From the NCBI RefSeq assembly GCF_002854065.1, contig NZ_CP024147.1: DNA of 64,000 nucleotides. One strand, given 5' to 3'. Position 1 is the stretch's first letter. Every line of letters starts with the position of its first letter. Shown in pieces: positions 31,776 to 32,905 of this stretch. Made by a program: the position numbers and the translations under genes. The DNA comes from Escherichia coli. Lineage in GTDB: Bacteria > Pseudomonadota > Gammaproteobacteria > Enterobacterales > Enterobacteriaceae. The notes under the pieces are model-generated. The model searched no databases, was not told where the DNA came from, and saw only the letters and a program-made list of their open reading frames with translations.

Positions 31776-32905
31776 CACACGTTCTGCGCGCCAGAAGGCT
31801 GCTGACTGAAGAGGGATGGCTCGATGACCATCAGTTGCGTATTGCTGACGGTGTCATCGCAGCAATCGAACCGATTCCAGTGGGCGTGACTGAACGCGAT
31901 GCGGAACTGCTCTGCCCTGCTTACATCGACACCCATGTACACGGTGGTGCGGGCGTTGATGTAATGGATGACGCGCCGGATGTACTCGACAAGCTGGCAA
32001 TGCACAAGGCACGCGAAGGTGTCGGCAGTTGGTTACCGACCACCGTAACCGCGCCGCTTAATACCATTCATGCGGCGCTGAAACGTATTGCTCAACGTTG
32101 CCAACGCGGCGGACCTGGTGCGCAAGTGCTGGGGAGTTATCTCGAAGGACCGTACTTCACGCCGCAGAATAAAGGCGCGCATCCGCCGGAATTGTTTCGC
32201 GAGCTTGAAATTGCCGAGCTGGATCAATTGATTGCCGTTTCTCAGCACACCTTACGCGTGGTAGCGCTGGCACCGGAAAAAGAAGGGGCATTGCAGGCCA
32301 TCCGCCATCTTAAACAGCAAAATGTAAGGGTGATGCTGGGGCATAGCGCGGCGACCTGGCAACAAACCCGCGCCGCGTTTGATGCCGGTGCCGACGGCCT
32401 GGTGCATTGCTATAACGGGATGACAGGTTTACATCACCGCGAACCGGGAATGGTTGGCGCGGGATTAACGGACAAGCGCGCCTAGCTGGAACTGATAGCC
32501 GATGGTCATCATGTGCATCCGGCGGCGATGTCGCTGTGTTGTTGCTGTTCGAAAGAGAGAATCGTGCTGATCACCGACGCGATGCAAGCAGCCGGGATGC
32601 CGGATGGTCGCTATACGTTATGTGGCGAAGAAGTGCAGATGCACGGTGGCGTTGTCCGTATCGCGTCCGGTGGGCTGGCGGGCAGTACGCTGTCTGTTGA
32701 TGCGGCAGTGCGCAATATGGTCGAGTTGACGGGCGTAACGCCTGCGGAAGCCATTCATATGGCATCGCTGCATCCGGCGCGAATGCTGGGTGTTGATGGT
32801 GTTCTGGGATCGCTTAAACCGGGCAAACGCGCCAGCGTCGTTGCGCTGGATAGCGGGCTGCATGTGCAACAAATCTGGATTCAGGGTCAATTAGCTTCGT
32901 TTTGA
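31772..32905 (+). pseudogene. agaA: N-acetylgalactosamine-6-phosphate deacetylase interrupted by an in-frame TAG
   Basis: Track ORFs 31751..32485 and 32513..32905 share one reading frame; the only break is TAG at 32483..32485 in the context ...GLTDKRA*LELIADGHHVHPAAM, where tryptophan (TGG) is recalled. Confidence 0.8.

Follow-up and report, generated by a model that had tools for sequence, protein, structure and literature searches.

Several disrupted genes have been described in the aga/gam cluster of Escherichia coli, together with engineered deletions of agaA, the gene for N-acetylgalactosamine-6-phosphate deacetylase. In K-12, agaA is inactivated inside the agaZVWEFASYBCDI cluster by the agaW'-agaA' deletion (PMC2808357). 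This deletion removed agaE, agaF, part of agaW and the 5' half of agaA, and the loss of the transporter makes K-12 negative for growth on N-acetylgalactosamine (Aga). In about 380 complete genomes, the K-12 derivatives C600 and NEB Turbo among them, the match to agaA is confined to its 3' half. In O157:H7 strains EDL933 and Sakai, agaC and agaI are each split by a single-base TAG (agaC Q8* and agaI Q72*), the split open reading frames (ORFs) have been annotated inconsistently, and the agaI amber had no effect on growth on Aga (PMC3668189). Engineered ΔagaA strains of E. coli C and O157:H7 EDL933 grow on Aga while ΔagaA ΔnagA strains do not (PMC3668189; Hu, Patel, Mukherjee 2013). The double mutant is complemented by either gene, and both nagA and nagB are induced in ΔagaA cells growing on Aga (PMC3668189).

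The stretch of E. coli DNA analysed here (64 kb, referred to as the window) carries a premature amber codon at codon 238 of agaA (W238*). As in K-12, agaA is inactivated inside its cluster, but the cluster upstream of agaA is whole and the lesion is a single base. Like the O157:H7 ambers, W238* is a single-base TAG that leaves split ORFs with inconsistent annotation; those ambers lie in other genes and are CAG-to-TAG changes, whereas W238* is a TGG-to-TAG change. Taking all the evidence together, we consider it highly probable that W238* agaA is an inherited nonsense pseudogene that is tolerated because of NagA and that most likely originated by 5-methylcytosine deamination.

The agaA reading frame and its amber codon

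The aga/gam cluster is complete in the window, in the order agaR / kbaZ-agaVWEF-agaA-agaS-kbaY-agaBCDI, and is collinear with the annotated clusters of the complete genomes CUWW06 and 100416. The interrupted gene lies between agaF (31341-31775) and agaS (33256-34410), and this position identifies it as agaA. It occupies 31772..32905 on the plus strand and consists of 377 codons plus a TGA stop (32903-32905), with its ATG start at 31772 overlapping the agaF stop as ATGA. The frame is open from 31751 (or from the ATG at 31772) to 32905 except for one TAG, found in the context GLTDKRA*LELIADGHHVHPAAM, and the ORFs 31751..32485 and 32513..32905 in the program-made list are in the same frame. A reading made earlier from the sequence only had proposed that these two ORFs make up one full-length deacetylase gene of 377 amino acids, beginning at the ATG at 31772 and interrupted solely by this TAG. 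Direct reading of the window bore this out for the frame and the codon count, and the match to a deacetylase family model did so for the identity of the product.

Translated with X at residue 238, agaA scored 288.2 bits against the NCBIfam model TIGR00221 (nagA) over residues 3-372, which is above the model cut-off of 225.65 bits at full length. PDB structures of NagA matched the product with E-values of 6e-60 to 4e-36, and the gene aligned without indels over 1134-1137 nt with agaA of thousands of E. coli genomes. The TIGR00221 match and the indel-free alignment establish that agaA is a real interrupted gene and not a chance pair of ORFs. Against the model for NagA proper, NF008371 (PRK11170), agaA reached 220.2 bits under a cut-off of 483, and alignment with E. 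coli NagA gave 124 identities over 372 aligned residues. These two results indicate that the gene is a paralog of NagA and not nagA, despite the label 'nagA' applied by PGAP. Several deposited records call W238* agaA as two short amidohydrolase genes, and the locus would be better annotated as one agaA pseudogene (W238*).

The premature TAG occupies 32483..32485 on the plus strand, with a derived A at 32484 where the ancestral base is G. This G-to-A change converted Trp238 to an amber codon and ends translation after residue 237. The translatable N-terminal fragment of 237 amino acids (31772..32482, plus strand) retains the putative metal ligands H55, H57, E125, H191 and H212, and codons 239-377 are left as an untranslated 3' remnant (32486..32905, plus strand). 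Alignment to E. coli NagA (PDB 1YMY/2P50 family) placed two active-site residues, H247 (NagA H251) and D269 (the catalytic NagA D273), in this remnant. In Mycobacterium smegmatis NagA the equivalent residue, Asp-267, is a metal ligand, and the D267A substitution caused a significant loss of enzymatic activity (PMC6016474). In the 237-residue product the final barrel strands are missing, as is the C-terminal portion of the small domain, so that any fragment made would be without the last third of the amidohydrolase barrel, including the His and the catalytic, metal-binding Asp. A functional agaA has an uninterrupted frame encoding all active-site residues; here the frame stops at codon 238 with H247 and D269 beyond the stop, which makes this agaA a pseudogene. 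With the equivalents of NagA H251 and D273 missing, no active deacetylase is expected, and judged by these residues the activity of AgaA would be dead.

Restart of translation within the remnant was considered as a way to rescue activity. GTG 32513 (V248), 28 nt past the stop, is the earliest in-frame codon at which translation might restart, and translation of the two ORFs as separate pieces of one working enzyme is an idea that has also been raised for the split agaI of O157:H7 (PMC3668189). A product begun at V248 would lack residues 238-247 (WLELIADGHH), and a two-piece AgaA is implausible because it would still be without H247, the counterpart of NagA H251. No clear Shine-Dalgarno sequence was seen upstream of GTG 32513 in the window sequence, and the downstream part of the gene is gathering nonsynonymous changes, as described below. 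We regard a working two-piece enzyme as extremely improbable and treat the fragment and the remnant as parts of one pseudogene.

Ancestral codon and inheritance of the stop

All seven intact alleles sampled from diverse E. coli carry TGG (Trp238) at codon 238. A 61-mer centred on this codon was matched exactly in its TGG version in 4836 of 5280 complete RefSeq E. coli genomes, and its TAG version was matched exactly in two of the 5280 (CUWW06 and 100416). The proposal that TGG is the ancestral codon and that a single G-to-A change produced the stop is upheld by these counts, with the change located at 32484. Alignment to reference agaA, which had been suggested as a check, likewise gave TGG and no stop at codon 238 in the intact alleles.

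The same stop was found in related genomes. At about 99.94-99.98% identity, 100416 and CUWW06 come closest to the window. Collinearity with CUWW06 extends over the full 64 kb (about 99.98% identity), and none of the 14 SNPs that separate the two in collinear blocks disrupts another gene. CUWW06, isolated from wastewater in Thailand, has an agaA identical to that of the window with 0 differences, TAG included. The stool isolate 100416 from the Gambia carries the TAG together with two extra nonsynonymous changes 3' of the stop, G275E and T306M. PGAP annotates agaA of both genomes as a pseudogene with an 'internal stop' (under the label nagA in CUWW06). The exact 237-amino-acid product has been deposited from 242 contigs, among them contigs from human gut metagenome and GenBank drafts, and a Shigella-type variant of this product from 158 contigs.

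As the TAG differs from the common allele by a single base, an error of sequencing or assembly in a gene that is really an intact TGG allele had been offered as an alternative. This explanation is excluded by the same TAG in independent assemblies from Thailand, the Gambia, gut metagenome and GenBank drafts and by the NCBI 'internal stop' flag, and we assign it practically no probability. The window, CUWW06 and 100416 are independent assemblies, as their different IS1 positions indicate, and the assemblies sharing the TAG differ from the window in SNPs as well as in IS1 position. The TAG is also linked to two derived changes, A260S and T297I, both absent from the intact alleles. W238* agaA is an ordinary nonsense pseudogene that is already flagged in RefSeq. 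The allele is fixed in a clone with isolates from several continents. A literature search returned no specific description of the agaA W238* allele or of a Shigella agaA pseudogene.

Three changes, W238*, A260S and T297I, are derived in the window lineage relative to the intact alleles sampled, of which the nearest (NZ_OZ197100) is 4 nt from the window agaA. A260S results from a G-to-T change at 32549 and T297I from a C-to-T change at 32661, both on the plus strand; each is present in the window, CUWW06, 100416 and the loci L016 and L017 and is absent from 7 of 7 intact alleles sampled. G275E and/or T306M are added in 100416 and L017. All four of the lineage-specific changes other than the stop are nonsynonymous and all four lie 3' of the stop, with 0 before it, although these are small numbers. 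This pattern is that expected of untranslated sequence, and points to drift 3' of the stop.

A TAG followed by C, as found here, is not a strong termination context, which would favour read-through. A full-length functional AgaA might be made if the amber were decoded, either by natural read-through or by a supE-type or other suppressor tRNA, and the evidence from this strain is confined to the window, as its own tRNA set lies outside. No tRNA genes were found in the 64-kb window. In the sister genome CUWW06, the only genome checked, glnV and glnX, the two tRNA-Gln(CUG) genes beside the nag regulon, both keep the wild-type CTG anticodon, and supE was rejected there. A supE suppressor would insert Gln and not Trp. 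All of the lineage-specific changes 3' of the stop are nonsynonymous, as for untranslated sequence, and Shigella-type carriers of W238* have neighbouring aga genes split too, suggesting decay and not maintenance of a decoded gene. The tRNA-free window, the CTG anticodons of CUWW06 and the amino-acid changes piling up in the 3' part together make a supE-type suppressor unlikely, and production of full-length functional AgaA by any route of decoding appears very unlikely.

Haplotypes carrying W238* and the Dcm site at codon 238

Codon 238 and its neighbours have changed from GCC TGG CTG to GCC TAG CTG, and the five bases at 32481..32485, read directly from the sequence, are now CCTAG and were CCTGG ancestrally, a Dcm site. 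The G-to-A change at position 4 of this site is equivalent to C-to-T at the methylated inner C of the bottom-strand CCAGG. Codon 238 has the sequence features of Dcm deamination, an ancestral CCWGG with a C-to-T change at the inner C on either strand. Four Dcm sites are present in agaA, and only those at W196 and W238 can yield a stop by deamination. Very-short-patch repair by Vsr, which acts on T:G mismatches in this sequence context and turns them back into a Dcm site, normally works against such deamination (PMC2715241). In CUWW06 both dcm (1419 bp) and vsr are annotated as intact. We infer that the most likely origin of W238* is 5-methylcytosine deamination at the Dcm site CCTGG. The O157:H7 ambers agaC Q8* and agaI Q72* were considered as Dcm events and rejected, as their contexts, read from the window sequence, are TTCAGGG and ACCAGCA and not CCAGG.

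W238* was found on at least three agaA haplotypes that are 16-34 nt apart, in a haplotype sample that is small and was ascertained through exact-protein look-ups. One haplotype, L018 (GCA_047262245.1), is 16 nt from the window type and exactly 1 nt, the TAG itself, from the common TGG allele of O26/O111-type strains. The Shigella-type allele, with H3Q, A25T, L72F and R186K, differs from the window at 26-27 nt and from L018 at 34 nt; its sources are S. dysenteriae 155-74 (the source's naming), CP026836, CP026824, CP027027 and AKNA01. For every TAG haplotype, the distance to an intact allele is smaller than that to the other TAG haplotypes. Between W238* backgrounds the flanking 12.7 kb differs by about 1.7-2%, and no long stretch of identity surrounds the stop. 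The occurrence of the same stop on at least three haplotypes so far apart suggests that W238* probably arose more than once, and Dcm deamination would also explain its presence on several unrelated agaA haplotypes.

E. coli recombines frequently, and the identical stretches around the TAG between pairs of haplotypes are about 140-160 bp, a length compatible with a short conversion tract. W238* might then have arisen once and spread to other agaA backgrounds by short-tract homologous recombination, and nonsense alleles outside Dcm sites are also found on more than one background, so that the pattern is not specific to Dcm. Spread from one origin would require at least two separate, very short tracts bearing only the stop, while L018, one base from the STEC-type TGG allele, has the simplest signature of a new mutation. 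Very-short-patch repair (PMC2715241) would, by inference, bias heteroduplexes toward TGG, and the W196 Dcm site has the same multi-background pattern, with W196* TAG present on at least three divergent haplotypes. On balance a single origin followed by transfer is an unlikely, though serious, alternative to recurrent mutation of codon 238.

As a control, the exact truncated products were looked up for ten other transition-type nonsense positions of agaA. Many of the low-count matches were genes cut by contig ends and not nonsense alleles, so that rare alleles are overcounted when contigs are tallied. Q182*, a CAG-to-TAG change outside the Dcm sites, was the commonest nonsense allele of agaA, with at least 1000 contigs (1863 index blocks) and a single haplotype in the two places viewed. 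Q175* and Q272*, also outside Dcm sites, each occurred on two haplotypes, 20 nt and 5 nt apart respectively, and Q158* on one. Recurrence counts in this small, biased sample were three haplotypes for W238*, at least three for W196*, two each for Q175* and Q272* and one for Q182*. The idea that W238* is the uniquely common agaA nonsense allele was rejected, given the far greater abundance of Q182* and the existence of several others, and recurrence on multiple haplotypes was not upheld as a Dcm-specific property, as Q175* is also on two divergent haplotypes. Other agaA nonsense alleles were seen at loci L027-L034, L039, L045 and L046 (Q182*, W196*, Q175*, Q272* and Q158*), and agaA is frameshifted in the complete genome MS 21-1. 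The gene is lost often in E. coli, and nonsense alleles of it are common in public data.

Three of the eight Dcm target positions (gene nt 585, 630 and 713) varied in the predicted direction in a 21-sequence agaA alignment that was partly TAG-selected, and 73 of its 1134 positions were variable overall. A Dcm hotspot fits the chemistry and the pattern of alleles but is unproven, since nonsense alleles outside Dcm sites recur too. We raise as a tentative possibility, short of an even chance, that W196 and W238 are natural hotspots that have repeatedly and independently inactivated agaA across unrelated lineages of E. coli and Shigella. On this reading the amber alleles would persist and spread because NagA makes agaA redundant. 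In a bolder version, loss of agaA may be favoured by selection in some niches. If the hotspots are real, W196 and W238 would be the population-scale counterpart of the 5-methylcytosine amber hotspots of lacI.

NagA, erosion of the aga/gam cluster and comparison with known systems

Loss of agaA is probably tolerated because GalNAc-6-phosphate is also deacetylated by the paralogous NagA, which agaA mutants induce. The nagA gene of CUWW06 is intact and encodes 382 amino acids, and the other genes for Aga use (kbaZ, agaV, agaW, agaE, agaF, agaS and kbaY) are open in the window and of the expected lengths. By analogy with the deletion mutants, the window strain is predicted to be Aga-positive through NagA. 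A growth test on N-acetylgalactosamine is probably uninformative on the agaA defect, since NagA substitutes in ΔagaA mutants, and, with NagA covering the step that is lost, W238* should not be taken to mark a strain as Aga-negative.

A second lesion in the cluster is an IS1 of 768 bp (36086..36853, plus strand) inserted after codon 40 of agaC, the gene for the galactosamine PTS IIC, with a 9-bp target duplication CCCTAACTG at 36077-36085 and 36854-36862. By analogy with the agaC amber of O157:H7, the window strain is predicted to be galactosamine-negative through this insertion. The agaC IS1 is absent from 100416, and CUWW06 has an independent IS1 between kbaY and agaB, which 100416 lacks as well. 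No complete RefSeq E. coli genome matched across the IS1 junctions of the window, the best match covering 97%. The separate insertions in the window and CUWW06 indicate that the aga/gam cluster has been struck repeatedly in this clone.

Other differences were seen around the cluster. The spacer between agaA and agaS (32906-33255) is REP-like and palindromic, has a dense run of differences at about 33009-33083 and is the most divergent stretch between lineages within the 12.7 kb compared. The agaI gene has 255 codons in the window and 251 in L018. Between agaI and rsmI (~39125-39903) the window has a RelE/ParE-family toxin gene and an HTH gene where other E. coli have yraJ/fimbrial usher genes. 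A PrlF-YhaV type II toxin-antitoxin pair (26000-26800, by collinearity with CUWW06) is directly upstream of agaR, as in other E. coli, and appears intact. Four Rfam families matched above the gathering score: RNase P RNA (rnpB; 19191-19567, minus strand), SraG sRNA (58700-58871, plus strand), the ribosomal protein S15 leader (59101-59215, minus strand) and naRNA4 (60728-60798, minus strand). All four are expected for this region of E. coli (yqjG to nusA side).

In the Shigella-type W238* carriers (L019-L026) more aga genes are split or truncated (kbaZ, agaW, agaE, agaC or agaI, depending on the strain), a transposase lies 3' of agaI, and decay of the cluster is more advanced. With W238* and the agaC IS1, the aga/gam cluster of the window is eroding, and K-12, O157:H7 and Shigella have each undergone such erosion independently.

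Among known systems, the engineered ΔagaA strains of E. coli C and EDL933 are the best predictor of the phenotype of W238*: AgaA is lost in both cases, and the engineered strains are Aga-negative only when nagA is lost as well. They are clean laboratory deletions, whereas the window allele is a natural point mutation that still encodes a 237-residue fragment. For the mutation itself the comparison is with lacI, in which 5-methylcytosine amber hotspots at Dcm sites were classically described. W238* would share with the lacI-type hotspots the same C-to-T change at the inner C of a Dcm site that gives a TAG. The lacI hotspots come from laboratory mutation spectra, while the agaA evidence is a population distribution in which an excess over non-Dcm sites is not established. 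Its Dcm context makes W238* a modest example with which to study how methylation may drive parallel gene loss in natural populations.
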